A DNA stretch of 64,000 nucleotides from NCBI GenBank assembly GCA_963807965.1, contig CAWEDU010000002.1, positions 14,264 to 78,263 on the forward strand, read 5' to 3'. Source of the stretch: an uncultured Thermoplasmatales archaeon (GTDB lineage Archaea; Thermoplasmatota; Penumbrarchaeia; Penumbrarchaeales; Penumbrarchaeaceae). A model generated the notes under the pieces. The model was given only the letters and a program-made list of their open reading frames with translations, had not been told where the DNA came from and made no database searches. Made by a program: the position numbers and the translations under genes. This document shows positions 1 to 58,559 of this stretch, one piece after another. Positions within the stretch are counted from its first letter, which is position 1. Every line of letters begins with the position of its first letter.

Positions 1-991
1 AGCGTGTACATCTGAAATAACAGCGATCCTGCCCACATTCGAGTTCAATTCCATGGTGATCCGGATCGTCTCCTCCAGTCCAGACAGAATCCTATCCCCA
101 TCGATCCCATCCCAAACCTCCACGAACCTGAAGTACTCCTCATCTCTTCTCTTCTTCAGATGGGATGAGAACTCATTGAGCTCTTCCTCTCTCCCCTTAA
201 ATACACCATCTTTCGATCTTTCTAGGACCTTTCCGATCTCCTCGATCCACACATCAAGGTCATGCATCTCTCCTGCAGAATCCTGGAGCGAAACGAGAGC
301 ATCCAATTCCCTGGAAAGACCACCCGCATATATTTCGCTGAAAAGTGCTAGGGAATATCTGAGGTTCTTTGCCGCGATCCTCAACCTGTGCTGCTTTTTT
401 GTACGCTTCCTCAACATGGACACAACCTGAAAGCTTCTTCAGTTCATCCACTCTGCTTAAGATCTCATTCCTGGCCCTTTGGTATAGGGAAAAGGGGTAT
501 GGACCTTTCCTCCCTACGGGTTGGTCAAATTCACCGAGAACTGTTCTGATCTCATCCAGAAATCCGCTTCTGATCGCAACATCGAGGGAGGCTTTGACCA
601 ATTCCTGCTCCTTGATACGTTCATCGAAATAGAGGCCCCTCATCCCCTTTAGAATCTGGTAATACTTCTTGTTCTCATCAAGTGAGAGCCACTCGTCCAG
701 CTTGATGATCCTCACATCGAGGTCCCTTGCATTTCCCAGACCTTTCATCATCCTTTTTGTTTCTAAGATCCAACCCTCGGCCCCATCGAAGATATCACGG
801 AACACGGAAAGCGCGGTCCTCAGCCTTCTGGAGTTGGTCCTGGCCTTATGGACATCTTCCGGGTCCTCCCCTGTAATTGCTCCATCGATGTGCTTTTCGA
901 TCTGGGTGACATAGCCAAGGACCGATCCAGACCCATATCCAGCTTCCGTTATCCAATCTGCTGCAGCCATTTCAAGCCCTACTTGCACCAT
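1..991 (-). CDS. CHAD domain protein, frameshifted as sequenced; reading frame runs off the window start
   Basis: ORF 260..991 carries a CHAD-like helix motif (HKARTNSRRLRTALSVF). After the A6 run (T6 on + strand, 395-400) homology is lost. The +1 frame then reads HRLRIAAKNLRYSLALFSEIY...LQDSAGEMHDLDVW, a typical second CHAD half, and stays open to nt 1. The last residues, GRIAVISDVHA, resemble metallophosphoesterase motif I. The start overlaps the ppk stop by 13 nt. Confidence 0.75.
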
Positions 992-3117: not shown

Positions 3118-3270
3118 GATCTTCACGGGAGTGTGATAATAGGATGCATATGATATTTTCAATTTGCCCTGGGTTTTTTTTTACAGATCAAAGGAATGGA
3201 GCATTTGCAAATATGAGCCAGAACCTGATTCCAATGAACTCTTTATTAATCGGAACCACATTTACCTTCC

Positions 3271-27218: not shown

Positions 27219-29879
27219 TCAATCCTCACCAAACGGTATCTCTTCTTCCTTCTTCGAGATACCCTGACGGATCTCCAGGAGCCTAGTTTCCTTGTAGTCA
27301 AGGACATCCTGAAGAACGGTTTGAACATCATCTGCCTGGAGGACTATGATATCGCCCTTCTTTGCCATATCAAGGGTCGCCTGGGTTGCCTCCCTGCCGT
27401 CGTAGACAAGGGAGATGTTCTCTTCTTTTAGACCTCCCTCCATCAACCCTTGCTTCACAAGGTCGGCAACCTCACCTAATGGCCTTCCCCTTGTGTCAGT
27501 ATCCGCGATGACCACATGATCGTAGAATCTGGAAATTGTCAGACCGTATTCCTTTATATCCTCATCCCTTCTGTTTCCGGTCCCGGCAGCCATCCTGATC
27601 CTCCGTCCGGGAGCCAAGTGGGGAAGGAGCTTTCCAGTGGCAGTTATTGCTCCTATATTGTGGCCAAAATCCACAATGACCTTGAAATCATCAATGTCAA
27701 TTACATTCATCCTTCCCGGAGAAAGTCCGATCGATGGGCTGAAGCTCACAAGCCCCGCTCTGATCTGCTTTCCGTTCAATCCCATTGCCGAAGCAGCTCC
27801 AACTGCTGCCATCGCATTCTGGATGTTGAAGGTGGCCTTTCCCCCGTAGGTGATGGGAACCTCGATAACCTTGGCGATCAATGATGTCCATCCCCCCTTC
27901 TGGATGATTATCGATTCATCCTTCAAGGTAATGTTCATATTACCTTTGTCCAGGTTCTCCTTTAGGGCTGGATTTTGGGGGTCCATGGAAAAAAGAATGA
28001 CCTTTCCTTTGGTATTCTCTTTCTGACCCATGACCAACGGATCATCAGCGTTTAAAACAGCATGACCTGTTGGTTTAACTACATCTACTATTGTACCTTT
28101 TAACCTCGCCAGATCCTCCAATGTATTTATCCCGCCTTCTCCAAGGTGGTCAGAAGTAACATTGAGGAAGACGCTGACATCCGTCTCATCGAATCCAAGA
28201 CCTCTCCTGAGTATGCCACCCCTTGCTACCTCCATTACAGCGTGGTCAATGGTGGAATCCATAAGGACGACCTTTGCCCCTCCAGGTCCGCTGTAGTCTC
28301 CTTCCAGGATAGGGGTATTATTGATCACCACAGAATCTGTCGAGGTCATACCGACCCTGCACCCGTTTAGCTCCAGTATATGGGAGATCAATCTAACTGT
28401 AGTGGTCTTTCCATTCGTACCTGTGACAGCAATGATCGGGACCTGATATTCCGCTCCAGGAGGGAAAAGCATATCGACTACGTTCTCCCCAATGTTCCTG
28501 GGTTTCCCTTCTGAAGGACTTAGATGCATTCTGAGCCCGGGAGCAGCGTTCACCTCGATAATACCCGAGCATTCAGGGTCCAGAGGGGTGGTCAGATCCT
28601 GAGCGATAAGATCGATCCCCATTACGTTCAATCCAATGATCTGAGATATCCTTTCCGCCATGGAACTTACCATGGGATGAACATCATCTGTAACATCGAC
28701 CGCTCTGCCACCAGCACTTAGATTTGCTGTGGATTTAATGTAAAGCTTCTCTCCATCTGGAAGGACATCCTCCAGGGTCAGATCCCTCATCTTGAGCAGT
28801 CTTTCGGTCATATAATCGATCTTCACTCTGGTGAGGTTCTTCTCATGCCCGAATCCTCTATCGGGGTCCCTGTTCATTTCCTCTATAAGGTCCTTGATGG
28901 TCGTTTTTCCATCTCCAGTGATGAAAGCAGGTTCTCTCTTGGCAGCAGCCGCGAACTTGCCGTCAATGACAAGCATTCTGAAATCTATTCCAGTAAGGTT
29001 CTTTTCAACCAGAACGGTGTCGTATACCTTCTTTGCGTTCATGAAGGCGATCTCAAGCTCCTCCGGGGTTTGGACATTGGTCGTTATCCCTCGTCCGTGA
29101 TTTCCAATTAGAGGTTTGACCGTAACTGGATATCCGATCCTCTTCGCCATCCTCAACCCATCCTCGAGGTCCCAAACAGAGTATCCTTTCGGAACAGGTA
29201 TTCCCATTGTGGAAAGGAGTTCCTTGGTCCTCTCCTTGTCATCTGCGATCTCCACACCAATAGAGGATGTATTGTCCATCATGGATGCCTGAATTCGCCT
29301 TTGATGGACACCATATCCAAGCTGGACATAGCTCTCTTTATTGAGCCTGATAACCGGGATGTCCCTCTTCTTTGCTTCGTCCACAATGGATTGGGTTGAA
29401 GGACCGAAGAGGTTCCTTTCCCTCATTTCCTTGAGCTTTAAGACCATGGGTTTGATATCCATGGTCCTGAAATTGAAGAGCTCCTCAACGATCTGGACAG
29501 CATATCTTCCTGCCTGGATCCCAACCTCCTCATCCCTGTAACGGTAGACTACATCGTAAACACCCTTTTCCAGGGTATTGATGGACTTTCCAAATCCCAC
29601 CTCTGTCTTTGCCAGACACTGAAGTTCAATTGCAATGTGCTCAACAAGGTGACCTGCCCAGGTCCCTTTCTCAACCCTCTCAAAGAAACCTCCCCTTCTT
29701 CCCATAGAGCAGCGGTGTTCCACCAGGGTGGGTATCATTTCCTCCAACCTCTCCCTGAAACCGGGAACATCGTTTGTGGGTTTGTTTTCCAGTTCCCCTA
29801 TGTCCAGTTTCATAAAAATGGTAGGATATCTGCTGTAGTAATTAGGACCTCTGAGTGCCCTTATCTCCCGAATCTCCAT
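27219..29879 (-). CDS. cphA: cyanophycin synthetase
   Basis: Intact 886 aa. It has the characteristic N-terminus IRALRGPNYYSRYP, an ATP-grasp core, and a Mur-ligase-like module with VTGTNGKTTT. Confidence 0.9.
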   Translation of the reverse strand: MEIREIRALRGPNYYSRYPTIFMKLDIGELENKPTNDVPGFRERLEEMIPTLVEHRCSMGRRGGFFERVEKGTWAGHLVEHIAIELQCLAKTEVGFGKSINTLEKGVYDVVYRYRDEEVGIQAGRYAVQIVEELFNFRTMDIKPMVLKLKEMRERNLFGPSTQSIVDEAKKRDIPVIRLNKESYVQLGYGVHQRRIQASMMDNTSSIGVEIADDKERTKELLSTMGIPVPKGYSVWDLEDGLRMAKRIGYPVTVKPLIGNHGRGITTNVQTPEELEIAFMNAKKVYDTVLVEKNLTGIDFRMLVIDGKFAAAAKREPAFITGDGKTTIKDLIEEMNRDPDRGFGHEKNLTRVKIDYMTERLLKMRDLTLEDVLPDGEKLYIKSTANLSAGGRAVDVTDDVHPMVSSMAERISQIIGLNVMGIDLIAQDLTTPLDPECSGIIEVNAAPGLRMHLSPSEGKPRNIGENVVDMLFPPGAEYQVPIIAVTGTNGKTTTVRLISHILELNGCRVGMTSTDSVVINNTPILEGDYSGPGGAKVVLMDSTIDHAVMEVARGGILRRGLGFDETDVSVFLNVTSDHLGEGGINTLEDLARLKGTIVDVVKPTGHAVLNADDPLVMGQKENTKGKVILFSMDPQNPALKENLDKGNMNITLKDESIIIQKGGWTSLIAKVIEVPITYGGKATFNIQNAMAAVGAASAMGLNGKQIRAGLVSFSPSIGLSPGRMNVIDIDDFKVIVDFGHNIGAITATGKLLPHLAPGRRIRMAAGTGNRRDEDIKEYGLTISRFYDHVVIADTDTRGRPLGEVADLVKQGLMEGGLKEENISLVYDGREATQATLDMAKKGDIIVLQADDVQTVLQDVLDYKETRLLEIRQGISKKEEEIPFGED

Positions 29880-29896
29880 TTTAAATGTCCCCTATC

Positions 29897-30781
29897 TCAT
29901 TGACAAGCCAAATCGAGACATTCCATATCAGCAGGCTTAAGATATCTTCTTTCCCATAGATCGTATCCTAAACCCTTCACGATAGTATGAACATGCATAT
30001 TCTCAATGGCAATTGCTTCGCCATCAGAAACCTCTGTTATATTAGTATATCGGAGGTCCTGTCCGTCAAAGATCACCACTAAACCTGTACCAATTGCTTT
30101 AATGTACCGATTTTGTTCTATTACAACACCGGTATCTTCACCAAGACCTATACCTATGTTGACAGGATTGGAACTGACTATTTGCATCAATCTTGAAAAA
30201 CGACCCCTTTTAATGAAATGGCTGTCGATTATGACCTTCCCGATAAGACCTATACCGGTGGTCATGTGAACTGCACCTTTGAGGAGGGCCTCGGTGGCTA
30301 GACCTCCATAGATCATGGTATCCGGCATCACCGCCGCTCCTGCACTTGTTCCGGTAACAATGACCTTCTCGTTGAAGTATCTCCTTCTGATCTCCTTCAG
30401 GACAGGAGAACCACCGAGGATCGTGGTTATACGGAGCTGATCGCCACCTGAAAAGAAAATTATATCTGCTTTACTCAATCTTTCCACAAGGGCAGGGTTC
30501 TGTGCTTCCTCCCTGGTATTGATATGCATTATTCCCAGGTCGTTCCCTTCGATTATGGAAAATGCTTTTTTATAATTCTCTGCCACTTCCAGAGGGATCT
30601 CTGAAGCAGTGGTGATAAGTTCGATCTTTACAGGTTCATTCCCATCCTTCATTACAAGGGAGATAATGCTACGAAGAATTGAGAGGTCCTGGTCCTTATC
30701 CTCGTTACCACCCACTGCTACCAGAAGTCCTAATGGAGTCTTACGGTTGGAAGAATTAGTTAGATCAGGATCTTGGAGCAT
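29897..30781 (-). CDS. cphB: cyanophycinase (peptidase S51)
   Basis: 294 aa with VGGNEDK, FFSGGDQLR and the nucleophile motif GTSAGAAVM. Lies 17 nt upstream of cphA on the same strand. Confidence 0.85.
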   Translation of the reverse strand: MLQDPDLTNSSNRKTPLGLLVAVGGNEDKDQDLSILRSIISLVMKDGNEPVKIELITTASEIPLEVAENYKKAFSIIEGNDLGIMHINTREEAQNPALVERLSKADIIFFSGGDQLRITTILGGSPVLKEIRRRYFNEKVIVTGTSAGAAVMPDTMIYGGLATEALLKGAVHMTTGIGLIGKVIIDSHFIKRGRFSRLMQIVSSNPVNIGIGLGEDTGVVIEQNRYIKAIGTGLVVIFDGQDLRYTNITEVSDGEAIAIENMHVHTIVKGLGYDLWERRYLKPADMECLDLACQ

Positions 30782-44774: not shown

Positions 44775-46184
44775 TCACTCTCTCTTTCTTCTGAAGATAC
44801 CTATCAAGGCAATTACAGCTATGCTCCCGATCAACAATGGAATACCAAGACCTGGAGAATCATTATCTCCACCACCTGTTTGATCTCCTCCCCAGAAATC
44901 CATGATCTCTTCAGTGATATCCTTTGAATCCTGATTCCAATTGGCCTCAGAAGCATCGGAATAGGCCCTAACGACAACGAATATCTTTGATATTTCAGGT
45001 CCATCATCATCTGTTGTGTTATCCTCATCTGAAGGACCTACCAATTTATCATACCAGGACATTGGTGCTTTGGCATACATATACCAGGCCCATTCAGACC
45101 AGTCTGTATTTCCACCTGGACCAGTTCCCTTGAAGTACATCTCCGTGGTGATGCCGAGCATGGTCGACCTTGGTTCCTCGTCAGGGCCAACCTGCCAATC
45201 ATCGGCTTCGTATGTTCCGTCATCGTAGTAGGTGACCATTGTCATGGAGCAATGATGGACTGTTCCGGTTGTTGTACCATCGATCGTATGTTCCATCTCG
45301 AAAGTATCATCTCCAGCGTCTACGGAATAATCAACATTGTTGATGGTTACTGTGATCGAGTCGTCAGTTGGAGTCTCCGCTGTGGGATCCGGATTGTCAT
45401 TGGTGTCATCATCATCGTCATCATCATCAAATCCCATATCCGGATAACTGTTGATATCATCCGGAGCTGTTCCCCAAACATATTCTTCAAAGTTCGTATA
45501 ACCGTCACCATCATGATCTTCGTCAGCATCATTGATCGATGTATCCAGACCATGTAATTGTTCCCAGGAATCGGGCATCAGGTCCCCATCGGCGTCCGTT
45601 TCTTCATCATCATCGTCGTCATCGTCATCGGTGGATGTTCCCTCTCCGAAATCCTCATTGATGACATCACTCAGAACCACCATTTGACCAATGACTGTCA
45701 TATCAATCTCAGCATAAACATCCATAATTGGATGATTTGATTCATCTATATCCGACTTGTTGACCTTGAGGGTCAGAGTATCGGTTCCGTTTCCTGTAAC
45801 CTCAGGAGTAGGACCTAAGCCAATGAATTCTCCATTTAGACTTGCTGTACCCATGTAAATTATTGCAGAGGTACTTTCTGACCCATCACCGACCTGGTCT
45901 AAAAAGAAATAATACATGTACATCCCGTTGCTACCGGAATAATCTATCAACCCATCCACTTTAAGGGTAAGTACAATTGGATCGGATGATCTATCAAGTG
46001 TCAGAGCAAGGATGTCCGTATTCTTAACCATCTGGGCGTCACCACCGGTATTATCAACATCCCCGGAAGGATCTATGTATGATATCGTGTTATCCGCCCT
46101 TGTCTGGGCAAAGGATCCCATGGATAGGACCGAGATCGCCATTATTGTTATTACAAAACCTGCCATTAGAGAACTTATCTTCAT
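44775..46184 (-). CDS. secreted, highly acidic surface protein with TSP3-like Ca-binding repeats and a PGF-CTERM-like anchor
   Basis: Signal MKISSLMAGFVITIMAISVLSMGSFA. The string DADGDLMPDSWEQLHGLD..DADEDHDGDGYTNFEEYVWGTAPDD is TSP3-like. Two D8 runs are present. The C-terminus is SPGLGIPLLIGSIAVIALIGIFRRKRE. Confidence 0.65.
   Translation of the reverse strand: MKISSLMAGFVITIMAISVLSMGSFAQTRADNTISYIDPSGDVDNTGGDAQMVKNTDILALTLDRSSDPIVLTLKVDGLIDYSGSNGMYMYYFFLDQVGDGSESTSAIIYMGTASLNGEFIGLGPTPEVTGNGTDTLTLKVNKSDIDESNHPIMDVYAEIDMTVIGQMVVLSDVINEDFGEGTSTDDDDDDDDEETDADGDLMPDSWEQLHGLDTSINDADEDHDGDGYTNFEEYVWGTAPDDINSYPDMGFDDDDDDDDTNDNPDPTAETPTDDSITVTINNVDYSVDAGDDTFEMEHTIDGTTTGTVHHCSMTMVTYYDDGTYEADDWQVGPDEEPRSTMLGITTEMYFKGTGPGGNTDWSEWAWYMYAKAPMSWYDKLVGPSDEDNTTDDDGPEISKIFVVVRAYSDASEANWNQDSKDITEEIMDFWGGDQTGGGDNDSPGLGIPLLIGSIAVIALIGIFRRKRE
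45405..45428 (-). repeat. GAT/GAC trinucleotide tract encoding poly-Asp
   Basis: gtcatcatcatcgtcatcatcatc on the + strand, encoding D8 in the acidic surface protein. Confidence 0.8.
45603..45629 (-). repeat. second GAT/GAC trinucleotide tract encoding poly-Asp
   Basis: ttcatcatcatcgtcgtcatcgtcatc on the + strand, encoding DDDDDDDDE. Confidence 0.8.
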
Positions 46185-46381: not shown

Positions 46382-46816
46382 ATGAGGATTGAGGACGTTG
46401 GGTCCTTGTCTCCGTCAGGGGACCTATTAGCTTTCAGTATAGCTCTGGCCCTGACCATCGGATTGATGGGGATCCTGGTTATCGATGATGATGGAGAATC
46501 TGATGATCTTCCATTTTCAACCTGGTTAAACATTCTGAAGAAAAGCGACCTTCTGGACCCTGACGATGACGGACTGATAGGACCTTTGGAAGGTGACATT
46601 TCAAACACCGGAAGGACCATACCTGTCATTGAACAGGACCTTTATATTGAATTGAGATCGAATGATATCAATCTAACTTTCATATTGAAGGACGGGACCT
46701 GCTTTTACGGGGATACGGACTACGTCCTTGATTCACCGATACATTCTACCCTTGTCCTCTTCGAGGGACCATATCCGGGATCGATCACCATAGGGATTGT
46801 GGAGGTGATCTCCTGA
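46382..46816 (+). CDS. hypothetical small protein with a pilin-like or anchor-like N-terminus
   Basis: MRIEDVGSLSPSG-DLLAFSIALALTIGLMGILV followed by an acidic soluble part. First gene of a same-strand cluster. Confidence 0.5.
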   Translation: MRIEDVGSLSPSGDLLAFSIALALTIGLMGILVIDDDGESDDLPFSTWLNILKKSDLLDPDDDGLIGPLEGDISNTGRTIPVIEQDLYIELRSNDINLTFILKDGTCFYGDTDYVLDSPIHSTLVLFEGPYPGSITIGIVEVIS

Positions 46817-46929
46817 GGTCTATTGTATCATTCCAAGGAATAGAAACCCCCCTTTCCCTCACGTTACTGGTCATTTCCGTATCACTGCTTGCCTCAGGGT
46901 CATCATTACTCTTCCATTCTGATCCAACC

Positions 46930-47304
46930 ATGGGAAATCAGGATCTAAGATATGATCAAACAAGGGACATCGGTAGATGTCTTTCCGACCTTATCGTGGC
47001 AAGACATCCTTTTCTTTCGAACATTTCAAAGTCTACAAATAATTGGTCCATGATAATTTGGACCGGAAGTACCTTTTTAGATATTGGCGAAGATTCATTC
47101 CTTATACCTGTAATAAAAGAGGTCCTCAAATGGACTCCTGACGGACTCTGGTCCATGGTCCTTGTATTCATAGACATCGAACCCTCGATCTTAATTGAAA
47201 CACCCATCTCGACATTTGTAAGGGAAATTACACCGGGCCTGTCATTGAAGGTTGTTCTACCCTTGGAAAGGTCTCCACACCCGGTCCCGGAGGTCTTTTC
47301 TTGA
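46930..47304 (+). CDS. hypothetical small protein; the true start is probably upstream
   Basis: The frame is open from about 46790 and there encodes SIVSFQG-IETPLSLTLLVISVSLLASG, with no ATG/GTG/TTG. This suggests a missed start or another indel. The stop overlaps the next start (TTGA at 47301-47304). Confidence 0.4.
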   Translation: MGNQDLRYDQTRDIGRCLSDLIVARHPFLSNISKSTNNWSMIIWTGSTFLDIGEDSFLIPVIKEVLKWTPDGLWSMVLVFIDIEPSILIETPISTFVREITPGLSLKVVLPLERSPHPVPEVFS

Positions 47305-49823
47305 AGTTCGGAAGGACCTGGATCGATAGATCAGGGAAAACAGCATTTGCTTACCTTGCTGTTGTACTCATGGTCTTGACGTCCACATTCATTTCATACA
47401 TGGTCTGGATCCAAAGGACGGATGAAGAAGCTGAGATGTCATCCTTGTCCATCTCTCTGATGTCCAAGGATCTGGATTCCCTTGAGTCCGATCTAAGGAC
47501 CGGTTTGATAGAGCTGCATGATAGGATCTTCCTTGACCTGGTGACCAAACCCCAAAACTGGAATTCCACAAGACTGGACGGAGCCCTCGAGAGTAGGTTA
47601 TCTTTTTTAATTGAAGATGAGATCAATAGGACCTTCGAAAGGAACCTGCCTGGAAACGGCAAATGGCGTTATGCAATTGATGACCTCTCCATCTCCGTAG
47701 TTCCCCTTCCTGTCTCATTCCTATCCCCAACTACTTCGGGTAGAGAGATAGCACCGAACGGGACAGGACCTTGGACATATGGATGGAGGTCAGGAGCAAT
47801 GGGGGCCAACACTACGATCTCCATTGGGATCTCATGCTCGACCTCCAACAATGGTGTATCCCTGGTGAGAACTGTTGATGTCAATATCGTAAGGGAGTCC
47901 CTGACAGATCTACTGTATCAGAGAATTGAAAGACTGATCATGGCACTGGAAGGACCGGAAATGGCGGAGCTCTATCAGCATATGATAGGAACAGTTGCAG
48001 AGGCAAAAGCATATCTTGGCAGGGGAAGGTCCATGTCAGTTTCCGGAGGATCATCTATAGAACCTTTGCTAACGGATGATGAGATCTCCTCATGTATGGA
48101 CCTCAGTGTCCATCTATTGTCAAAAGCTTATTTGGGAGTATTCGATGAGAGAGGTCTTCTTGGGATCGAGAATGAGCTCCGATCCGTAGAAGGATCATTC
48201 GATTCATCGCCCGGTATCATGGAATTGCTATCTTCCCACGATGATGCGATCGATCCAGGAATGTTAGCACTGATCATTGAAGGTTTGTTCTCGGAGATGA
48301 CCCCTCCGGATGCAGAAGACCTCTTACGTCCGCTTCTTTTCTCCCTTCTTGAGAGATTGGCCCTTGGCCTTGTTGACTACATTGGCCTGGACACCGGCAT
48401 TCTGGAGACATTCGGAGGAGTGACAGGTCTATTCAGGGGGATCACTGAGAAAGTGGATTCCTTCTGGGAGGATGCTTTTGGTTACCATCTGATAGACACC
48501 AGAGATGTGGGAGTAGCGTCACTAATAAGGGACCTGTATCGAACCTCCCCCTACCTCCATGGGTATGAGGGGATGGCAATGATAGAGGAGGTTAGAGGAC
48601 TGAAATGGATGGGAGATTATGTGGATGGATATCCGGAGATCACACCAGATCCCATCGAACGCACCTTCGATGTGGGCATTTGGGAGGAAAATGGGACAGT
48701 TACGGTTCATTCCATCGAGGCGGTATTTCAGTTCCCACCGGAAGAGCCGGATTTTGAACCGATCAACATCCTGACTAATGAAAGGTCCATACAGGGGATC
48801 TCCGAGGTCCTGGGGATCGATGAGGGAATAATATCAGCCGAGGTTGCTCTAAGGGAATCTGCGGAGAAGGTCCTCAGAGATGCTGTCGAAAGAGTGATGG
48901 AAAGACTTGTTTCGGATGCCCCCGAGGTATGGGACAGGATCTGGGAAGGCTGGGAATATGATTCCCCCCCACCGCTGAATGGAGAGATGTGTCCCACTTC
49001 TTTCCTCACATTCCTCACTCTTACATCAATCCCTGATGTGATCGACGAGCTGATGACCATGCTGGTCAATTCTCCGGAACTAATTGACCTGAAGGAGGGT
49101 TTGTCGGACATCATCAGGATCCTGGGCGGACCTATCTCGGACTGGGTCTATGATAATTATTATACTGTTGTGAAAGCGGATTATCAGATCGACAATGCTT
49201 TGGAAGATTACTTCGAGCACCTCTATGGCACCATAGATGTTGCTATCATTTCCTCGAACAGGATAGGGACAAGGCCTTTCGAAAAAGGATATGCCACAGA
49301 TTTTAGTGGAAGACCTCTGGATTTCGATGAGTTACTAGACCATCCTTACATCCTGTCCGATCTGGGTCTGAACTTGTCTTCGGAAGGAGATCAGGACCCC
49401 GAATTGAGGGAGAATATCCTGAAAACGATCGTCTCCTCCATGGATCTGATGAAGGAAAGGGAGTTCGGAAATGGGGACATATTGTCAGAGACTGGATACA
49501 TCAGAAAAGCTCTGTCAGGCATTACAACCCGTGGAGGATCTCGGGTTGTGCCAGGATCGGTAGGATCTCCCAATTTATCAAGGTTTCAAGAGACTGTCAA
49601 CGACACCATACACCGCATCATGGCAGGTGTGATCAACGATACATCAGGAGCAGAGATGATGTCGGCGTCCAGACACTTCCTTCCTCCTTTGAACATGTCG
49701 GGAGCCGTTAAGATAAGAAAGAGTACTTCCGGGTCACCCAGTATGGGAGCTTGTTCCGACCCTAAATATTACCTGCGGTTCCAGGAAGGATACCATATAC
49801 GAGATGACTGGAGGCTTCCATGA
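47301..49823 (+). CDS. large hypothetical protein (840 aa) with a single N-terminal hydrophobic helix
   Basis: MKFGRTWIDRSG-KTAFAYLAVVLMVLTSTFISYMVW, then about 800 aa with no motif I recognise. The ORF is intact. Confidence 0.6.
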   Translation: MKFGRTWIDRSGKTAFAYLAVVLMVLTSTFISYMVWIQRTDEEAEMSSLSISLMSKDLDSLESDLRTGLIELHDRIFLDLVTKPQNWNSTRLDGALESRLSFLIEDEINRTFERNLPGNGKWRYAIDDLSISVVPLPVSFLSPTTSGREIAPNGTGPWTYGWRSGAMGANTTISIGISCSTSNNGVSLVRTVDVNIVRESLTDLLYQRIERLIMALEGPEMAELYQHMIGTVAEAKAYLGRGRSMSVSGGSSIEPLLTDDEISSCMDLSVHLLSKAYLGVFDERGLLGIENELRSVEGSFDSSPGIMELLSSHDDAIDPGMLALIIEGLFSEMTPPDAEDLLRPLLFSLLERLALGLVDYIGLDTGILETFGGVTGLFRGITEKVDSFWEDAFGYHLIDTRDVGVASLIRDLYRTSPYLHGYEGMAMIEEVRGLKWMGDYVDGYPEITPDPIERTFDVGIWEENGTVTVHSIEAVFQFPPEEPDFEPINILTNERSIQGISEVLGIDEGIISAEVALRESAEKVLRDAVERVMERLVSDAPEVWDRIWEGWEYDSPPPLNGEMCPTSFLTFLTLTSIPDVIDELMTMLVNSPELIDLKEGLSDIIRILGGPISDWVYDNYYTVVKADYQIDNALEDYFEHLYGTIDVAIISSNRIGTRPFEKGYATDFSGRPLDFDELLDHPYILSDLGLNLSSEGDQDPELRENILKTIVSSMDLMKEREFGNGDILSETGYIRKALSGITTRGGSRVVPGSVGSPNLSRFQETVNDTIHRIMAGVINDTSGAEMMSASRHFLPPLNMSGAVKIRKSTSGSPSMGACSDPKYYLRFQEGYHIRDDWRLP

Positions 49824-51828
49824 TCCGGATCCCAGGTTCGAAGGAGCTCCCTACAGAACCGACCTTACTGTTTCCGGTGAAAGGAACTACCGTTTCGTCT
49901 ATTCTCTGAATGGCAGTTCTCCCTTGACCCGGGAATTGAGCATCGACCCCCAGGCCTACATCTCCGTCCATACTGTATGGCCTCTTCAAGGAGCGTCATA
50001 TGAGGAGGGAACCACGCTTTACGACATAGCATCGGACAATGTCAAACAGGCAGCTATGGACATAGGGGAACGTCTTCTGAACAGTTCAACCTCGATCTTC
50101 TCTGGTACATTGAGGTCCCTCCAGGAGGTTCCTCCTCTGGTGAACGATATCGTTCAGAACAAGGACCTTGACCTGGCAGAGGCAAGCAGGGTCCTTTCCA
50201 ATGTATCCATGGACCTGTCATCGACACTGAGGAACGGGGTCAAGGACCTTATTCAGAAACTGATGGAAATGGGTTTGACCGGGGTCCTTTCCGCATTCCT
50301 GGACATTCTTGGGGTCGATGAGTTCCGATCGCTTAGGAAGTTCGGTCCCCTCGATCTGTGTCTGAGGACCGAAAAGGAAGCTCTCCTTGGTGAAAAAGGG
50401 ACCCTGATCGGAATGGAAATGAACGTTCCTTCCATCGGTCTTAATGGATACCTGACCGTGACAAGGGTGGACAACTCCTCCATGAGGTTCAACGGGACTG
50501 TCATTATTGAAAAAGGACCACTCTACATCAGAGCAGAATTGGATCCGTTCATGGAGGACAGACCTCACATGTTCTCTGTTGAAGGAAGATATGGTGGTAA
50601 TAACGGCAACATTTCCTTCTCTTTTTCAGTACCGACCCTTGAAGAATACAAGGTCACAGAGGTATCCCTATCTTCCTCACTTGGAGTGGAACCCATGATC
50701 CCAATCCCCCCTCTCGGGATCAATGCGGTGATAGACGGTGGTTTCAGATTGAGATACAGGATGCCAGAGGATCTCCCTCCGGTCCTGAACGAGGTCGAAT
50801 TCATGGACAACAATATCTCAAATGTCGAGATATTCGATCCGGGTCTGCACCCTTTCAGCGGTTCCACACTGGAATTGAGAAGCGGTTCGGATGACCTCAT
50901 CTGCTCCTGGAAGATCGAAGGTTCCCCAGAAAGATATTTCGTAATAAACCTAACACGTGAAAATATGTGGAGGTGGAAGGGTCCATTACCGAATGATGGA
51001 AATGTACACATTGTTCTCAGGTCCCCTTCCGGAGTGATAATGGACGATCTGTGGTTGGATGATATGAAAGACGGTTCGATCGGAAGGGAAAATGACGGCT
51101 ACGGTGTCTGGAGATGGGGGGAGTCAACATTCGGATCCACCAATGGCGGAAGTGTGAAGGTTTCCATATCCTCATTGATAGTCTCACTGGCATTTTCTGC
51201 CATCAAAGATGCATGGAATGAGGCCTACGATCTCTACGGACTATCTTTCGACACACTTGTCCATTTCCTTGAAAGGACCATTGAGCTTTTCATGGAAAGG
51301 TTCCTTGCCATGATCTCCGAGCTGATAGTCGATGCGAGGCTATTCCTCAAGCTTGAGGTCGAAGATGCAACTGGAAGTGCGGGGGCTGGCCTTGAGCTTT
51401 CATTAAGGGCCGAGGGTGAAGCAGTTGCCCTTTTTCTAGGCTGGCTTTATGAAAATATTGTGGTCATGATAAACAATATCAAGGATCCAAAGAGCTCCGG
51501 AAATATGGTGGATTTCCCTTTGAACATATTGGAGAAATGCTGGATAACCCTCCTTGTTTTCACAGAGGTGGAAACACCCGTTTCATTGGGGAACCTTGCC
51601 CCTGAGGGAACGGAGATCCCCGATTCCCTCACATACGGGATCACGGGGTCTGTAAACCTGGCACTTCCCCTCGAACTCATGGGAAAGGATATCGGATCCT
51701 GGCATGTTGTCTTCGGGTTGCAGGTGCTCGAAGCTCCCCCGTCTATAGTCTCGTTGTTCTATGATGTACGAAGCTTCGAAGGAACAACAGATCTTTGGCT
51801 GCTTAAAGGCGAGATATGGGAGGATTAA
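49804..51828 (+). CDS. large hypothetical protein (674 aa)
   Basis: Intact ORF overlapping the previous one by 20 nt. No TM segment or recognisable motif. Its frame is open from about 49715, so fusion with the 840-aa ORF is possible. Confidence 0.55.
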   Translation: MTGGFHDPDPRFEGAPYRTDLTVSGERNYRFVYSLNGSSPLTRELSIDPQAYISVHTVWPLQGASYEEGTTLYDIASDNVKQAAMDIGERLLNSSTSIFSGTLRSLQEVPPLVNDIVQNKDLDLAEASRVLSNVSMDLSSTLRNGVKDLIQKLMEMGLTGVLSAFLDILGVDEFRSLRKFGPLDLCLRTEKEALLGEKGTLIGMEMNVPSIGLNGYLTVTRVDNSSMRFNGTVIIEKGPLYIRAELDPFMEDRPHMFSVEGRYGGNNGNISFSFSVPTLEEYKVTEVSLSSSLGVEPMIPIPPLGINAVIDGGFRLRYRMPEDLPPVLNEVEFMDNNISNVEIFDPGLHPFSGSTLELRSGSDDLICSWKIEGSPERYFVINLTRENMWRWKGPLPNDGNVHIVLRSPSGVIMDDLWLDDMKDGSIGRENDGYGVWRWGESTFGSTNGGSVKVSISSLIVSLAFSAIKDAWNEAYDLYGLSFDTLVHFLERTIELFMERFLAMISELIVDARLFLKLEVEDATGSAGAGLELSLRAEGEAVALFLGWLYENIVVMINNIKDPKSSGNMVDFPLNILEKCWITLLVFTEVETPVSLGNLAPEGTEIPDSLTYGITGSVNLALPLELMGKDIGSWHVVFGLQVLEAPPSIVSLFYDVRSFEGTTDLWLLKGEIWED

Positions 51829-52640
51829 TCGAACTCCACTCTCCATGTATCGATGAGAAGGTCATTTGATATATTGACGGCTTCACGGATGATCTTGAAC
51901 GATCCATTTACTTGATCTGATGATCTTGAGACCTCTGACTCTGATGGAAGTATGAATGGAAGGGGACAGTATCCCCTGGATGTGGCACCCTCTTCTCCCT
52001 TCCAGATCAACATTCGATCTGATATGAGAAGGACCTCATCCTCCTCATTGAAAAGGACCTCCTGATGAAAATCAGGAGATGGTTGGAAGATCATATCCTC
52101 TAGCTGGAGCAATTCATCCAATGGTCCCGCTGAATCGAAGATGGGGTGAATGAAAACAGTGACATTGCCTGAAAGGACCCTAGACTCAACGATGATGGAA
52201 ACCGGTGTGGACATGGTATAACCACCAGACATTCTCCCGATGGTCTTTGCCTGCTCGAATGATAAAGACCTTTCATTCACTGGGGGATGTATCGGAAAGA
52301 CCTTCTGGTCCTCGATCACTGTTGCCCTCTTTCCATCCCATTCCAGGATCATCAATCCAGGAAGGACCTTCAGCTTGAAGATCTGATTTCCGATCCTCCC
52401 TGGAAATTCCAATATACCTTCACCATCACTTGAAGTGGTTCCGAAGGAAAGGGTAATCCGGGATCCTGGTTCCGACCTGAGGACCCCTTGGATAAGCGAT
52501 CCTATGTCTTCTGCCAGGTCCTCCATTGACATATCAACGGATCCGGTCGTCCTTTCCACAAGGGATCCTGCAAATATACCAAGTAGAATTGAAACCGATA
52601 TAAGCAAACCTCCCCGTAGTATAAGATCCGAACCTGTCAT
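51825..52640 (-). CDS. hypothetical protein (271 aa) with a pilin-like N-terminus
   Basis: MTGSDLILRG-GLLISVSILLGIFAGSLV: a basic residue plus Gly, then a hydrophobic helix. Its stop overlaps the convergent gene's stop (TTAA). Confidence 0.5.
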   Translation of the reverse strand: MTGSDLILRGGLLISVSILLGIFAGSLVERTTGSVDMSMEDLAEDIGSLIQGVLRSEPGSRITLSFGTTSSDGEGILEFPGRIGNQIFKLKVLPGLMILEWDGKRATVIEDQKVFPIHPPVNERSLSFEQAKTIGRMSGGYTMSTPVSIIVESRVLSGNVTVFIHPIFDSAGPLDELLQLEDMIFQPSPDFHQEVLFNEEDEVLLISDRMLIWKGEEGATSRGYCPLPFILPSESEVSRSSDQVNGSFKIIREAVNISNDLLIDTWRVEFD

Positions 52641-52725
52641 CGCACTCGATGAAAAAACCTAAACACTTCTATTTGGGTTTTTCTCGTTGAAAACTTATAT
52701 TAGGAAATATCCGGTTGAAGGGACC

Positions 52726-53421
52726 ATGGCCAAAAAGAGGTCCTCTATAGACATCGTCTCATCAGGGATCCCGGCCCTGGACAATGCCCTTCATTATGGA
52801 GGATTCAAGAAAGGTGCGATACATCTCATTGTAGGGGATCCTTCTTCTCGAAAGGACCTCTTCGGTTTTCATTTCCTTCAGAAGGGATTGAAGAAAGGAG
52901 AGAATGTCGCATTCTACGATGTGGAGGCCTCATCCGATGAGATAATGGACCTCCTTAACGAGGAAGTGGAAGGGGACCTCATCAAGAATGTGGAATTCGT
53001 CAACGCTTGTCCGGAATATTCCAAATTCTTCATTCAGGCGGTTCCGGCAAGGATCATAGAACACATGAGAGGACTGGATGGGAAGAAGATCAACAGGGTC
53101 CTTATCAATCCGCTAACATTCTTCATGGAGCAGTTCGGGAACAAGGACGCCGGGGATTTCGTCATAATGGTCCGAGATATCGCTATGAAGAAGAAGCTCT
53201 CGGTGGTCTTTCTAATGGCGGACATTCTCTCCGAAAGGGACATGCAGTCCATTATCGACAAGTTCGACGGACTCTTAGAGCTCAGGACCGTCAGGATCAT
53301 CGAAGGCATCTACCACACGATCCAGGTGAGGAAGTTCTCAATTCAGCAGAAGAACATCCAGCTCACCTATCATATTGATGATACAACAGTAAGGATCACA
53401 TCGACAGGGAAGATAGTGTAA
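52726..53421 (+). CDS. KaiC/RecA-superfamily fold protein with degenerate Walker A and B motifs
   Basis: SSGIPALDNALHYGGFKKGAIHLIVGDPSSRKDLFGFHFL matches the KaiC/RadA/ArlH layout. The P-loop, however, reads GDPSSRKD instead of GxxGxGKT, and the Walker B position reads RVLINPLT, with no Asp. Confidence 0.6.
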   Translation: MAKKRSSIDIVSSGIPALDNALHYGGFKKGAIHLIVGDPSSRKDLFGFHFLQKGLKKGENVAFYDVEASSDEIMDLLNEEVEGDLIKNVEFVNACPEYSKFFIQAVPARIIEHMRGLDGKKINRVLINPLTFFMEQFGNKDAGDFVIMVRDIAMKKKLSVVFLMADILSERDMQSIIDKFDGLLELRTVRIIEGIYHTIQVRKFSIQQKNIQLTYHIDDTTVRITSTGKIV

Positions 53422-54202: not shown

Positions 54203-54685
54203 CTAACACCTTCCCAATTTCGACCATTTCATGATCATGGACTCTTGTGAACGGGTCTGGATGGAACCCGGCCTTTTCTTTCTTACGGTCTTAATAGCCT
54301 CTATCGGATCCATCCCATGATGAACTAGATATAATCCGATCACGGTCCCGGTCCTTCCTATCCCTGCCGCACAATGGACCATTACCGGACCGTCATGCAT
54401 GTCGATCTCAGATATGATCCTCCTTACATCGGAAGGTCTTGGGGTGGCCATATCAACCACCGGGGAATGCAAACATCTGATACCGGATGATCCCTCCCAA
54501 CCTTCAGGCCATGGGCTCTCTGTAAGATTGATAGCGAGGGTGATACCCTCCTCATTCCTCAAGTATCCAAGATAAGAGTCATCAATCGGATATACGGACG
54601 CGATAACCTTGCCGTCAACGATCCAGTTGAAAGGATACATGCCGTACCTGGAGTAAAATACCTCCTGATCGGGTGAAAGAGGCAT
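54203..54685 (-). CDS. dual-specificity / tyrosine protein phosphatase
   Basis: HCX5R(S/T) active site: VHCAAGIGRTGT. Confidence 0.8.
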   Translation of the reverse strand: MPLSPDQEVFYSRYGMYPFNWIVDGKVIASVYPIDDSYLGYLRNEEGITLAINLTESPWPEGWEGSSGIRCLHSPVVDMATPRPSDVRRIISEIDMHDGPVMVHCAAGIGRTGTVIGLYLVHHGMDPIEAIKTVRKKRPGSIQTRSQESMIMKWSKLGRC

Positions 54686-57600
54686 CAGATCTCCTCCAAT
54701 TCATCGAACTCCTCCAATTCCTCCATATCCGACCAATCCTCGATATCATCATCGTTCCCTGAGGTCTCCGTTGTCCCTATCGATCGATCAGGAACAGTAT
54801 GCATTCTATTTTTTGGAGGAGGTGCTTTCTTCCGTTCAGGTCGGATGTAAGAATCGTCCTGCTCCCCAATGCTGGTGGTCCTGGAACGAACCTGTGGAGG
54901 TGAAGGCATCTTAGCAGGAGCCAGAGGTCGCTGTTTCCTAGCGGGCATAGGACCGATGGAGATCCTTTCCGGTTTTGAGGGCAACTTAGCACCGTTTTCC
55001 TCTTTTTTATCATCCTTCTTTCTTCCCCTGACCCAGATGAAAATGAAAACTCCAACTATCACCAAGATGAGTATTATCGGAATTAGAATGATGATCGAAT
55101 CCACTCCCCCTTTTTCTTCTTTACTTTTATCTGAACCCTTTACCTCGAAATCGAATGTGATAACCTTTGAATTCCCTGCTAGATCAGTGAAGGTCAGGTT
55201 CATGGAATGCTTTCCTGGGATCACCTCCCTGAAGACAGACATGCCCGCAGCGTGATCATGCTGTCCGGTTATCTCCATCCCATCCATTTCCACAGAGACC
55301 TGCAACTCCACCTCCCCTTCATCCCGGATCCAGTTCACTGTTATTACATCTCCATTTACTTCGAGATCTCCTGGAGTTATCTCGGGATCGACCCTATCAA
55401 GAACGAATTGAACACTCTCGTTTGTCATCCATCCGCCAATATCGGTCACCGTGATGGAGATCGTGTGCAGGCCGTCATCCAAGTCGATCATCTGATGCCT
55501 GGTCTCATTCGAAAGTGGGGTATCTACACCATCTATGCCCAGTATCAGCGAGGTGATCCCCATGTATTCCGTGATCGACCATTCCAGGACACCTGACCAT
55601 GTGTTTGTATAACCATCCTTGATGTTGGTCAAGGCAACTTCAGGTGGGTTGAGGTCCACCATGAAGGTCTTCTTGATAGAACGGGCATTACCGGCGTTGT
55701 CCATACATCTCAGGATGAAGATATGCTGTCCTTCGGGTACCTGAAGTTCCCTGGAAGTCGACATTCCCAGACCGAAGGGACCATTCCCATCAAGTGAATA
55801 GTTATAATGAACGATACCATTGACATCATTACCTTCCCATTCGAAGGTCATTGTCGGTTCGGTTATCACATCATCCAAAGGTGAGATCAGATCCAGCTGG
55901 GGTGGAGTGATATCGATAATTATTTCGATCTGGCCCTCCCCAATATTTCCAGCAATGTCATGAGCAAGAACCTTTAAGATGTGCTCCCCTTCTTGAAGTG
56001 TGACCGTTCTTTCCGTATCTTTCACTCCAAGTGCGACATTCACATCATCGATGAAGAGATCGTATCCGGTGATCCCGGATTCTTCCAAGGCTCCCCATTG
56101 TATGGTGACCTTTGTTGTGTTGATCAAGATTCCACTTTCGATGTCAATGAATCCAGTGGAGGGTGGTTTCCTGTCTACAATGATCTCTACGGAATCTGAA
56201 AAGATATTCCCGGCTGGATCACGAGCCTCGACAGTAACGGTATGGAGGCCATCATCGGAAAAGGAAACTGGGTAGGATAATCGGTCCATGGGAAGTGAGA
56301 CCGGGCTGTTCTCATCCAATGAGATCTGGATATTATCGATCTCCAGGTGTGTAAGGTATTCCCATTCGATCAAGAAGGAGGTCTCCTGTGTGGGAATAGA
56401 AAGCCTGGGAGATATGATGTGGAGTGATGTGTTCTCGGCTATCCTGAATGTAATGGCCGATGTGGCCCGGTTCCCTGCCATATCGTAGACCTCAACCGAA
56501 AAGGAATGCCAATTCCTGCTCAGAAAGGAGGTGTGTGTCTTTCCAACGATCCCTGTGATCTTCTCTCCATCGATGGTCACGTTCGTGGACCTCATTTCTG
56601 TCAGGTCATCTATATTCCATTCGAAGTTGACAAGACCATTCGAGATAACAGAGGATTCAATGGGATAAAGGATATCTATCTCTGGATCCGTGGTATCAAT
56701 AGTAAATGTGATCGACCTTCGAACGGAATTATTGTAATGATCGGTGAATTCCATCCTGAGATCATGTGATCCATCGTCAAGGTCAAGATCAAATCCATGG
56801 TTTGGATCTTTCTCCACCCAGGAACCTCCATCCAGTTGATATGCAAGGGACTTGGGCACGAATCCGTCTTCCAGGTCCCAGATCACATCAACATTTCCCT
56901 TGCTATAGAATCTGCCAGCATTTGGCGATAAGACATTGAAGGGTTCCTTCCCCTCCTCGATCACGATCGTAAGTGAGATGGATGTCCTCAACCCGGCCAT
57001 ATCAACTGCCCTAAGAACGATTTGAAACTGCCCATCTGTCAGGTATAGGCCATGGTGATCTCTCCTTGAGACATTTATCCAGGGGTCTATACCCTTCTTT
57101 ATCTGGATCATTGAAATACCGGTCTCGTTGTCTGAAGCATCCCAGCTGAAGTTCACATATCGGGTATCCAAGAACCTTGTTGTCGGTGTGAGGACCTGGA
57201 ATAGAGGTCTGTTAAAATCGAAATACCGATTGGATACCGGGGAAGGATCTGTCTGTCCTGTGTTGGAAGACAGCCTGTAACCCGTTTCATCCGAGAATCC
57301 ATCGCTATTTTCATCTGAATTATCCCAGTCCAACCAGAAATTCCCCACATCGGACCTTTGCCACCTGAACTGAGAATATCCATCCCTAGCCTGGGAATTA
57401 CTTAAAGAAAAATCCTCTCCTGATCCGTGATTGTACATGAAAATGTTGCGATATACATTGCTCGTGGCCGATCCGCCATTGTTCAGTTCTATGGCATAAT
57501 CCTGTACAACCGATGAACCGATTGTGGTGGATGTCCATATAATAAATGTAGGGATGGCCGGTAGTCCAGTAAAAATAGATCCCCCTTCCACCAGTTTGAT

Positions 57601-58559
57601 TGAAGAGATTGTATTCGAATGTCAATGATGACCAGGATTCATAACTTGTTCTGACCGGGTTGTATGTATTTGGATGCTGGACCCATATTGCGTCCATTCC
57701 CCCCGAGAAGGAGTTATTTGCGATCTTGATCCGGTTACAGTCAAAGAGCCAAGTGATAGTATCGCTCGATGAATGCCCGTGGAGGATATTACCCTGGAAA
57801 TCAGAGTAATATCCTGCATACAACTTCACTGTTCTAACGTCTAGTGTGTTATTGGAAATATCAGAGGTACTGGAACCGGTTCTGAACTATATCTCTGATA
57901 GAACCCTTGTTCCTTGTAAAGTCTAAATAATAAGTACCATCAAAATCGATATCCATATCAGGTGCGTTAAAGGTATTATTGTAGATATCCACATAATAGC
58001 CAAGATAGAAGTGAATAAGGTCTCCGTTCCCCCCTGGATTGGAGAAATTGCACCCGGAAATGTATACCCTTCTTGGATTAGACATATCAAGCTGGGTCCC
58101 ACCTCCTATTACCGTGATGTTTATCAGTTTTAAATTGAGATAATAATATGTCGTCCCTGATTGATATGGTCTAATATAGATTGCCGGAGATAATGATGAG
58201 GCGTATATCGTGACATTCCGGATCTCAAGATTATAAGTGGTATTCCGAAGATATATCCCGGTCTTTCCCGAGCTCCTGCAATCTATGCTCAGGTCTGAAA
58301 TGATGAAAGGTTCGGTCACAGTCCCTTTCCCGGAATCGATCTCGGGATGGTAGTAGAGTTCCGTATTGCTCTCGATACTGATGGGACCCACACTGTCCAG
58401 ACCATTGACAAGAAGATCCTTTTCAAGGTCCTCAAAGATATGAGGGGCAATGTCCAATAATGGCAGTAATAAAAATGCGATGACAAATGGAACAAGATAT
58501 TTTTTAGAAAAGTGGATCTTTAATTCCATAGGATCGCCGTACCCTTGATTAAACCCCAT
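54685..58559 (-). CDS. giant cell-surface protein C (N-terminal anchor/signal, beta-helix repeats, many Ig-like domains, TM, about 110-aa cytoplasmic tail); 2 frameshifts
   Basis: ORFs 57861..58559 (GKGTVTEPFIISDLSID), 57398..57829 and 54685..57591 join at about 57877 (...VQN|GSSTSDISNNTL) and about 57508 (...HHNRFIG|VQDYAIELNNGG). Both are +1. The TM helix IIILIPIILILVIVGVFIFIWV is followed by a basic then acidic tail ending DMEELEEFDELEEI. Confidence 0.75.

Follow-up and report, generated by a model that had tools for sequence, protein, structure and literature searches.

A putative membrane-anchored surface-protein complex with one giant subunit in sediment Thermoplasmatota

We analysed a block of five neighbouring genes, called here A to E, in a stretch of 64,000 nucleotides from an uncultured Thermoplasmatales archaeon (contig CAWEDU010000002.1 of assembly GCA_963807965.1, positions 14,264 to 78,263), which is referred to below as the window. 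With a probability that we put at roughly one half, genes A, B and C, often joined by D, provide sediment Thermoplasmatota with an extracellular complex anchored in the membrane, the main body of which would be a giant acidic surface protein of about 1,510 amino acids (aa), probably glycosylated. Judged from their sequences, the module and its protein family appear to be undescribed while their general kind is familiar: an anchored surface-protein complex, perhaps related to pilins, with a function that is putative. The initial annotation had seen in this place six or seven genes, with two giant proteins and a KaiC-like component, and had left the choice between the accessory arm of a pilus-like machine and a distinct envelope-associated complex. 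The second of these two interpretations is now the better supported one, whereas the idea of a system of seven genes, two giants among them and KaiC as the motor, has to be given up: the genes to be counted are A, B, C, D and E.

The envelopes of sediment Thermoplasmatota that are known from uncultured members have essentially not been described. An operon which is conserved and translationally coupled, and whose product of 1,500 aa has neither family nor structural analogue and can yet be modelled confidently, is a candidate for a major component in the envelope or in adhesion, and the giant protein C would be a new entry for the catalogues of protein families and folds. The N-termini of the module, ultra-conserved and non-canonical, allow one to test directly to what extent archaeal prepilin-type signals can diverge, and the relatives of C which bear hydrolase domains tie the scaffold to a possible antagonism between archaea and bacteria. 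A more general lesson is that giant ORFs (open reading frames) which seem to overlap in a contig like this one may be frameshift artefacts, and that inherited gene order can mimic a system.

Gene models and the giant gene C

The genes were compared with the contexts of 17 related loci (designated by L and a number), in which A, B and D were sought with hidden Markov models (HMMs), and C, E and S with phmmer. The features of the region are the following, with positions in nucleotides (nt) counted from the first letter of the window.

46382-46816 (+): gene A, 144 aa; an ORF with a leader of 7-13 residues (MRIEDVGSLSPSG), a single hydrophobic helix and an ectodomain of acidic composition
46813-47304 (+): gene B, 163 aa; probable CTG start, within a CTGA that it shares with the stop of A
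46930-47304 (+): the ORF first listed for B; its frame is open upstream
47301-49823 (+): N-terminal part of gene C, an ORF of 840 aa with a TTG start; its last ~30 codons (after ~49722) are out of frame
49716-49726 (+): frameshift site of gene C; a gap of 2 nt relative to the closest relative, L002
49717-51828 (+): C-terminal part of gene C, listed as an ORF of 674 aa from the ATG at 49804; the best-conserved half
51825-52640 (-): gene D, 271 aa; an ORF convergent with C, the stop codons overlapping
52726-53421 (+): gene E, 231 aa; ATG at 52726, within an ORF of 244 aa that is open from the TTG at 52687
44775-46184 (-): gene S, 469 aa; divergent from A, a frequent neighbour

All the ORFs listed in the initial annotation are present (46382-46816, 46930-47304, 47301-49823, 49804-51828 and 52687-53421 on the plus strand, 51825-52640 on the minus strand). 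The ORFs of 840 and 674 aa, which overlap by 20 nt (49823/49804) and had been taken for two giant proteins, are a single gene C of about 1,510 codons. The orthologues of C are uninterrupted ORFs, of 1510 aa in L002 (81% identical) and of 1515 aa in L003. When the DNA is aligned to that of L002, the window is short by 2 nt near 49722, and the tblastn alignment of the L002 protein leaves frame 3 at 49721 and resumes in frame 1 at 49726. In a three-frame translation, the homologous sequence is carried by frame +1 of the window from ~49717 (…(E)RVLPGHPV…EMTGGFHDPDP). Hence, we concluded from the intact orthologues, the gap and the switch of frame that the two listed giants are one gene.

The frameshift itself is probably an artefact, since unrelated genes of the window are broken in the same way. 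At least three further frameshifts besides that of gene C were found by tblastn: the downstream adhesin is spread over three frames and a β-eliminating lyase, which has 462 aa in L006, over two. More indels are suggested by the split ORFs of a pyruvate phosphate dikinase (PPDK) N-domain and of an M20 peptidase. The contig appears to be rich in indel errors. We also considered a biological pseudogene and a programmed shift; with at least three other, unrelated frameshifts in the same window, both are unlikely. The sites concerned are these.

54685-58559 (-): a broken large β-helix/Ig-repeat adhesin, in three frames against a single ORF of 1290 aa in L002
3271-4657 (+), 20142-22515 (+) and 25985-27023 (-): further sites of genes split between neighbouring ORFs that lie in different frames

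The family of C, whose members are typically ~1,500 aa long, is small and specific: a profile search among 1.84 billion representatives retrieved 26 clusters at E<=1e-3. C carries the conserved motif D-x-x-G-K-x-A-F-A-Y-L-A-V at the membrane helix, and the near-invariant residues are mainly Gly, Pro and Asp. The C-terminal half is 37-92% identical to its relatives; when the closest one, L002, is set aside, the identity is 37-60%, against 25-49% for the N-terminal half.

AlphaFold models of the two halves, built with 28-31 homologues, may be called fairly confident (for the N-terminal 840 aa, a predicted local distance difference test score, pLDDT, of 77.0 and a predicted template modelling score, pTM, of 0.54; for the C-terminal 674 aa, 81.6 and 0.73). 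The N-terminal model predicts a helix at residues 13-82, which comprises the membrane segment and a long extension, a second helix at 92-114, strands at 122-144, 159-181 and 187-198, and then helical domains, while the C-terminal model mixes β-sandwiches with long, conserved helical hairpins. Searched with Foldseek at E<=1e-3, neither half has a match in the PDB (template modelling scores of ~0.1; best E=0.17 for the N-terminal half), and the C-terminal half has none in the viral collection BFVD. One element of C can be put in relation with a known domain. Residues 326-440 of the 674-aa ORF align with a region of the homologue P0043 that scores 43.5 bits for LTD (PF00932), against a cut-off of 34.3, the motif NEVE…VEIFDPG of the window protein facing NEVE…VELYNP; the model places the strands of a β-sandwich within 327-439, and the window protein has no direct PF00932 match in the Pfam scan. 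From the alignment and the model, we propose that C contains a lamin-tail-like β-sandwich, as its one recognisable element. It would resemble in this respect the prokaryotic LTD surface proteins, from which it differs in that its own region stays below the Pfam threshold and makes up less than 10% of the protein.

The smaller genes required fewer corrections. As the initial annotation had noticed, the frame of B runs on upstream of 46930 through the hydrophobic helix with no canonical start: it is open from 46732, and no ATG, GTG or TTG occurs until 46930. The helix, which follows a conserved G-[IFM]-E-T motif, is retained in all orthologues. The most likely start is the CTG at 46813, because at the position aligned with the CTGA of the window the relatives carry an overlap of the same kind (ATGA in L001 and L002, GTGA in L003) and because the resulting 163 aa agree with the orthologues, which are 162-163 aa long. 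A CTG at an NTGA-overlap site where relatives have ATG, GTG or TTG was observed twice, in gene B of the window (46813-46816) and in gene C of L001 (9830-9833). These CTG codons are either a coupled restart codon of the lineage or base errors.

The tight junctions reported initially are real. B and C share the TTGA at 47301-47304 (start TTG of C, stop of B), and the convergent genes C and D share a stop/stop TTAA at 51825-51828, which has equivalents in L001, L002, L011 and L012. As the stop codons of C and D overlap, there is no room for terminators between them and the transcripts must overlap at their 3' ends. Gene A has its hydrophobic segment at residues 12-36 and a conserved DxDxDG loop (LDPDDDGLI), on which weak EF-hand matches fall; in D, the leader M-x-x-x-D-[ILV]-x-[LYF]-R-[GA] leads into a hydrophobic helix, beyond which the ectodomain is acidic. 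None of A to D belongs to a family in the Pfam, NCBIfam, PADLOC or PHROGs scans, in agreement with the initial annotation, and PDB profile searches with the families of A, B, C and D gave nothing except the EF-hand-like loop in A. Profile-profile comparison detected no paralogy among A, B and D.

Conservation, N-termini and topology of the module

The initial annotation had suggested looking for a conserved gene order in related archaea, and such an order exists. All the related A-B-C loci come from Thermoplasmatota; genomes with A-B-C include CBDDUX01, JAUVCN01, JBLIRK01 and JAUVLN01. A and B precede C in all of the 11 loci that include DNA upstream of C, which represent ~9 independent lineages, and the NTGA overlaps recur between A and B in 8/8 loci and between B and C in 7/8. 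In L006, A-B-C and the convergent D are all present between unrelated flanks (an S8 peptidase upstream, DUF6962 downstream). This recurrence means that A-B-C(-D) is a real module and not a mere inherited gene order. D adjoins C in the window and in L001-3, L006, L011-13 and L016, that is in about two-thirds of the lineages, and is absent from L005/L017, L008 and L014/15. E accompanies the C locus in about half of the lineages (the window, L001-3 and L011-13). The linkage thus has three grades: A, B and C form a tight core, D joins it frequently, and the association of E is loose. D and E may also be a unit of their own: in L018 (the Thermoplasmatota metagenome-assembled genome JBLIRH010000001.1, 7160-8767), a homologue of D (HMM E=1.7e-42) stands divergent to a homologue of E (68% identity), and no A, B or C was found within 8-10 kb of this pair.

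Gene S is a possible partner of the module. Homologues of S lie divergently upstream of A in seven loci (the window, L001-3, L005, L007 and L012) and not upstream of A in L006. The protein has hydrophobic segments at residues 1-28 (a signal peptide) and 442-466 (a C-terminal membrane anchor, ending in RRKRE). It is a secreted protein of very acidic composition (D+E 103 against K+R 18), with poly-Asp linkers and D-x-D-x-D-G repeats of the thrombospondin, Ca-binding type, and it gives a weak match, under the cut-off, to the NCBIfam 'Amuc_1099 family pilus-like system protein' (E=1.9e-4).

Each of A, B, C and D has exactly one hydrophobic segment, beginning at residue 4-14 and kept in all orthologues, so that the single N-terminal helix described at first for four proteins holds for all of them. 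Gly or Ala precedes the helix in A to D, within the motifs MR[IV]x[DE]xG[ST]xSPx[GS][DE]LLAF for A, xG[IFM][EQ]T[PSA]xS for B, Dxx[GA][KR]x[AP]FAxLA for C and Dxx[LYF]R[GA][GA][LFM] for D, and an acidic residue close to where the helix begins is conserved in A (D/E14), in B (E at +2) and in most C (E at +2). The first 25 alignment columns are the most conserved ones in A (74% against 36-57% elsewhere) and in D (73% against 50-66%), and in C they tie for the highest column identity (74%). From their sequences, these N-termini do not seem to be ordinary anchors.

The compositions differ from those of cytoplasmic neighbours. Acidic residues (D+E) outnumber basic ones (K+R) about twofold or more in A (26/6), C (229/121) and D (40/21), with a lower ratio in B (17/11), whereas the two kinds are about equal in number in the cytoplasmic proteins E (32/34) and Hef (111/117). 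Sequons of the type N-x-S/T reach ~1.8-3 times their expectation in B, C and D. Taking together the single N-terminal helices, the acidic composition and the excess of sequons, we infer that A to D have their N-termini inside and their C-termini outside, with glycosylated ectodomains.

A membrane-anchored complex could then work as follows. A, B and C would be translated as a coupled unit, the NTGA overlaps themselves being observed, and each product would insert co-translationally, so that a very short N-terminus stays in the cell and its bulk comes to lie outside. The conserved N-terminal helices, each after Gly or Ala and mostly with an acidic residue, might pack in the membrane and thereby give a fixed A:B:C(:D) assembly. 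The ectodomain of C would project from a cell that may be without a rigid surface layer (S-layer), and would comprise a long helix as its stalk, domains that are helical or rich in β-strands, and the lamin-tail-like β-sandwich. It might serve as a Ca2+-dependent adhesin or as a scaffold within a glycoprotein layer, and in distant relatives the same scaffold would carry hydrolase heads. In cultured relatives (Thermoplasmatales), a glycoprotein layer stands in place of an S-layer (PMC12448462).

Several points weigh against this proposal. If the frameshift were real, the C-terminal half of C would be left without an export signal. Beyond the LTD-like region, C of the window has no detectable domain of an adhesin, a lectin or an enzyme. 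D is missing from about a third of the lineages, and therefore the stoichiometric complex may be A-B-C alone. Finally, signal-anchors are usually not the best-conserved part of a protein, hence the strong conservation of the N-termini hints at processing or at packing of the filament type, which favours the first of the alternatives considered below.

Alternative readings and known systems

A to D might be proteins of the type IV pilin kind with divergent class III signals, cleaved after Gly/Ala by a peptidase and assembled by a machine of the PilB/PilC type, both encoded elsewhere. They would form either a complex of minor pilins at a tip, with C as the tip adhesin (compare GspHIJK and PilVWX-PilY1), or a pseudopilus resembling a bindosome. 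We hold this to be less likely than not, and we place it second behind a generic anchored complex, because the canonical peptidase sites are not seen even though the N-termini do not look like ordinary anchors. Leaders of 7-13 residues with Gly/Ala directly ahead of a hydrophobic helix of ~20 residues, N-termini whose conservation ranks as it does in pilins, and the acidic residue near the start of the helix all speak for it, as does the N-terminal model of C, in which a predicted helix of 70 residues is followed by a β-sheet. D has R-[GA] at -2/-1 in 9/9 orthologues. Class III signals are known on large proteins that are not pilins (PMC2910488), archaeal loci for type IV pili are accompanied by large adhesins, minor pilins and KaiC-family ATPases (PMC4858521), and pilin genes of archaea often lie far from the machinery, at ~500 kb in Cuniculiplasma (PMC12448462).

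The signals themselves fit less well. A rule of the FlaFind type, which asks for K/R (or D/E) at -2, for G/A at -1 and for certain permitted residues from +1 to +4, is matched by none of 10 A, 10 B and 15 C orthologues and by one of 9 D orthologues. In A, B and C, the G/A at -1 is not preceded by K/R, C has moreover K/R at +1, and D, with its R-[GA], has G at +1. No match to A-D was given by Pilin_N (PF07790), the class III signal family PF04021, TadE, N-methyl or the NCBIfam/TIGR models of archaeal flagellin N-termini (E<=1 for Pfam, E<=0.1 for NCBIfam), and no pilin family of Pfam was retrieved with 21 A/B/D orthologues at E<=5 or with isolated N-termini at E<=10. The matches of the N-terminal model of C in Foldseek include no pilin, and the lack of detectable paralogy among A, B and D is a further point against a pilin set. 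PilB/ArlI, PilC/ArlJ and prepilin peptidase are absent from the Pfam scans of essentially all the larger ORFs of the 64-kb window, as the initial annotation had said, and no pilus ATPase, platform or peptidase lies within ~10 kb at the 17 related loci, of which these flanks were covered. Without an HMM match, without the motif in A-C and in 8/9 D, and without machinery at these distances, the class III signals suggested at first are not supported by these tests.

The comparison with known systems is divided in the same manner. Accessory sets of archaeal type IV pili (PMC4858521) are likewise gene clusters in which several small proteins and a very large one all have a short leader and one hydrophobic N-terminal helix, with an acidic surface protein and a KaiC-family gene nearby, and they too can lie far from the machinery. 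The present genes differ from them by the absence of any pilin family match, by a [KR]-[GA] context restricted to D, by the lack of a DUF2341/PilY-type domain and of machinery in any of the 18 loci, and by the 1,510-aa fold of C, which has no solved analogue. In the bindosome of Sulfolobus, the small pilin-like proteins BasABC go together with large sugar-binding proteins that have class III signals (PMC2910488). The likeness is that small pilin-like proteins may position large helix-anchored ones near the membrane with no visible pilus; on the other hand, the Bas locus includes the ATPase and platform BasEF, which have no counterpart at the present loci, cleavage by PibD is proven for the Bas substrates, and A to D show no homology to these proteins.

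Bacteria possess minor-pilin complexes for initiation or at tips, GspH-I-J-K in type II secretion and FimU-PilVWX with PilY1. Like these, A to D are a small fixed set of co-encoded, N-terminally anchored proteins which do not look paralogous, one of them much larger than the others, and A, B and most C have an acidic residue close to the beginning of the helix. Unlike them, they show no similarity in sequence or in Foldseek, their acidic residue is at +2 or +7 and not at +5, the motif G-F/M-T-L-x-E is missing, and the host is an archaeon without machinery genes nearby.

A last element for a pilin-like origin comes from a distant subfamily of the giant protein, represented by P0026, which is ~16-25% identical to C and stands without A or B. 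Its N-terminus (…DERA-RVPFAVLAV…), which we take to resemble the archaeal Pilin_N motif, reaches when isolated 21 bits and E=1.3e-4 against positions 2-29 of DUF7286 (PF23957), an uncharacterised family with a model of ~1000 positions. The gathering cut-off of this family is 27 bits, and three distant members reach at most 14.6 bits (best E=0.011), the matches being confined to model positions 2-61, that is to the first ~30-60 residues. The likeness is thus limited to the N-terminal motif of the distant members; C of the window differs, with no DUF7286 match in the Pfam scan. Literature searches on DUF7283-7289 returned no papers. Two observations were made near the distant genes. At 2-4 kb downstream of P0026, L004 has three small paralogous genes and a gene of the tubulin/FtsZ family (16509-18195 on the minus strand, 15574-16497 on the plus strand), and one of the three paralogues has a bona fide Pilin_N (PF07790) N-terminus (…EEGVSPVIATILMVAITVVLAAV…). 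In L004 and L009, secreted proteins of ~700 aa without Pfam matches are encoded ahead of the distant giant gene.

Some members of this subfamily carry enzymes. In P0044 (L010, 10001-16501) and P0045, two domains are inserted into the N-terminal half, a GH25 muramidase at residues 172-349 and a Peptidase_C39_2 at 892-1040, and P0025 ends in a calcineurin-like phosphoesterase (Metallophos). As distant relatives bear hydrolase domains, we suggest that the giant scaffold is extracellular and modular. Peptidoglycan-directed enzymes such as GH25 and C39 in an archaeon are expected to act on bacteria. The distant giant gene is followed in two of three loci by a MazE-like/PIN pair (L004, 13729-14461; L009, 14877-15597) and in the third by a PIN-domain gene (L010, 16512-16951).

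One may imagine from this that A-B-C(-D) is a new kind of archaeal envelope apparatus, a hetero-oligomer held by pilin-like helices and without a pilus motor, in which the giant, its fold unlike any solved structure, is a modular and polymorphic platform with an adhesive, a lytic (GH25/C39-like) or a phosphoesterase head, as a counterpart of the bacterial polymorphic surface and contact-dependent effector systems. We regard this as a speculative idea with the odds clearly against it.

Less probable still is that C is a polymorphic scaffold for surface effectors used at cell contact, for instance in attacks on bacterial walls, with A and B as its partners in anchoring or maturation and with a head that, in the window, could not be recognised from the sequence. 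The enzymes of P0044, P0045 and P0025, the much greater variability of the N-terminal half of C and the MazE/PIN genes (in L010, the PIN-domain gene) after the giant gene all point in this direction. The enzyme-bearing members, however, belong to the distant subfamily without A and B, no catalytic domain or motif was found in proteins of the A-B-C type by the Pfam and NCBIfam scans, and Gly, Pro and Asp, which are the main near-invariant residues of C, are not what this explanation would favour.

There remains gene E, which the initial annotation had described as a KaiC-fold pseudo-ATPase and had counted as a part of the system. The fold and the altered P-loop are borne out. The most likely start of E is the ATG at 52726, as the family typically has 231 aa. 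The KaiC-type domain PF06745 is matched at 45 bits (cut-off 26.6) over residues 24-239 of the 244, and GDPSSRKD, aligned with the GPESSGKT of RecA, stands in place of the canonical Walker A G-x4-G-K-[ST]. The putative Walker B strand, as assigned by the position of the motif, reads RVLINP, with an invariant Asn128-Pro129 in which Asn replaces Asp; R42-K43-D44 and VLINP are invariant in 21 members of the family, which comprises 55 clusters. By its full-length PF06745 domain, its ~230 aa, which is the length of ArlH, and its cytoplasmic nature, E resembles the single-domain RecA-fold ATPases KaiC, ArlH and RadB, and NCBI labels its relatives 'RAD55 family ATPase'. Its Walker A and the Asn in place of the Walker B Asp set it apart from them, and arlI and arlJ are not adjacent. 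E was also tried as an ArlH and rejected, with 23.3 bits for NF052589 against a cut-off of 215 and no arl genes in the window.

What was not borne out is its membership in the system. L006 and L016 have D without E (in L016 the same flank is kept and two small genes stand in place of E), and L005, L008 and L014/15 have A-B-C without E. The family also occurs elsewhere: a homologue (54% identity) lies beside glutamate synthase genes, in a locus whose gene list holds no divergent gene of 270-280 aa resembling D and no gene of ~1,500 aa resembling C. Most loci with E share the downstream genes (an NTP-transferase, a phosphatase and the adhesin), hence its adjacency is explained by inherited gene order, although in L003 E still adjoins D while the next downstream gene differs. 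E evolves far more slowly (76-97% identity) than A to D (31-82%; 39-81% for C). From this slow evolution, from its occurrence elsewhere and from the very short cytoplasmic tails of A to D, E is most likely a separate cytoplasmic protein which is merely a neighbour. That the whole block A to E is one machine, in which E would power or regulate the assembly of the envelope proteins, is the least credible of the readings and a very improbable one: the divergent position of E beside D in the window, L001-3 and L011-13, the D-E pair kept in L018 and the statistical association of KaiC-family ATPases with archaeal type IV pilus loci (PMC4858521) speak for it, against the loci lacking E, its inherited adjacency, its slow evolution, its degenerate Walker A and B and cytoplasmic tails of ~7-13 residues that would offer little for a cytoplasmic protein to bind.

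Neighbouring genes and minor observations

The G+C content across A to E is unremarkable, and scans of the region with Rfam and for tRNA genes and repeats gave nothing relevant. As tblastn found no match in collections of plasmids and phages, an origin from a mobile element is unsupported. Neighbours within the window include the helicase/nuclease Hef, topoisomerase VI B, PcrB and NFACT, which, taken with the closest related contigs, assign the window to uncultured Thermoplasmatota of the EX4484-6 type.

Finally we must note two pairs of genes which lie farther away in the window. At 27219-30781 (-), a cyanophycin synthetase-like gene of 886 aa (Cyanophycin_syn, Mur ligase and ATP-grasp domains) adjoins an S51 peptidase of the cyanophycinase type, which makes up a pair for the synthesis and breakdown of cyanophycin in a Thermoplasmatota genome. 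At 260-3162 (-), the gene of polyphosphate kinase 1 (727 aa) precedes that of a CHAD-domain protein, a polyphosphate-associated pair.

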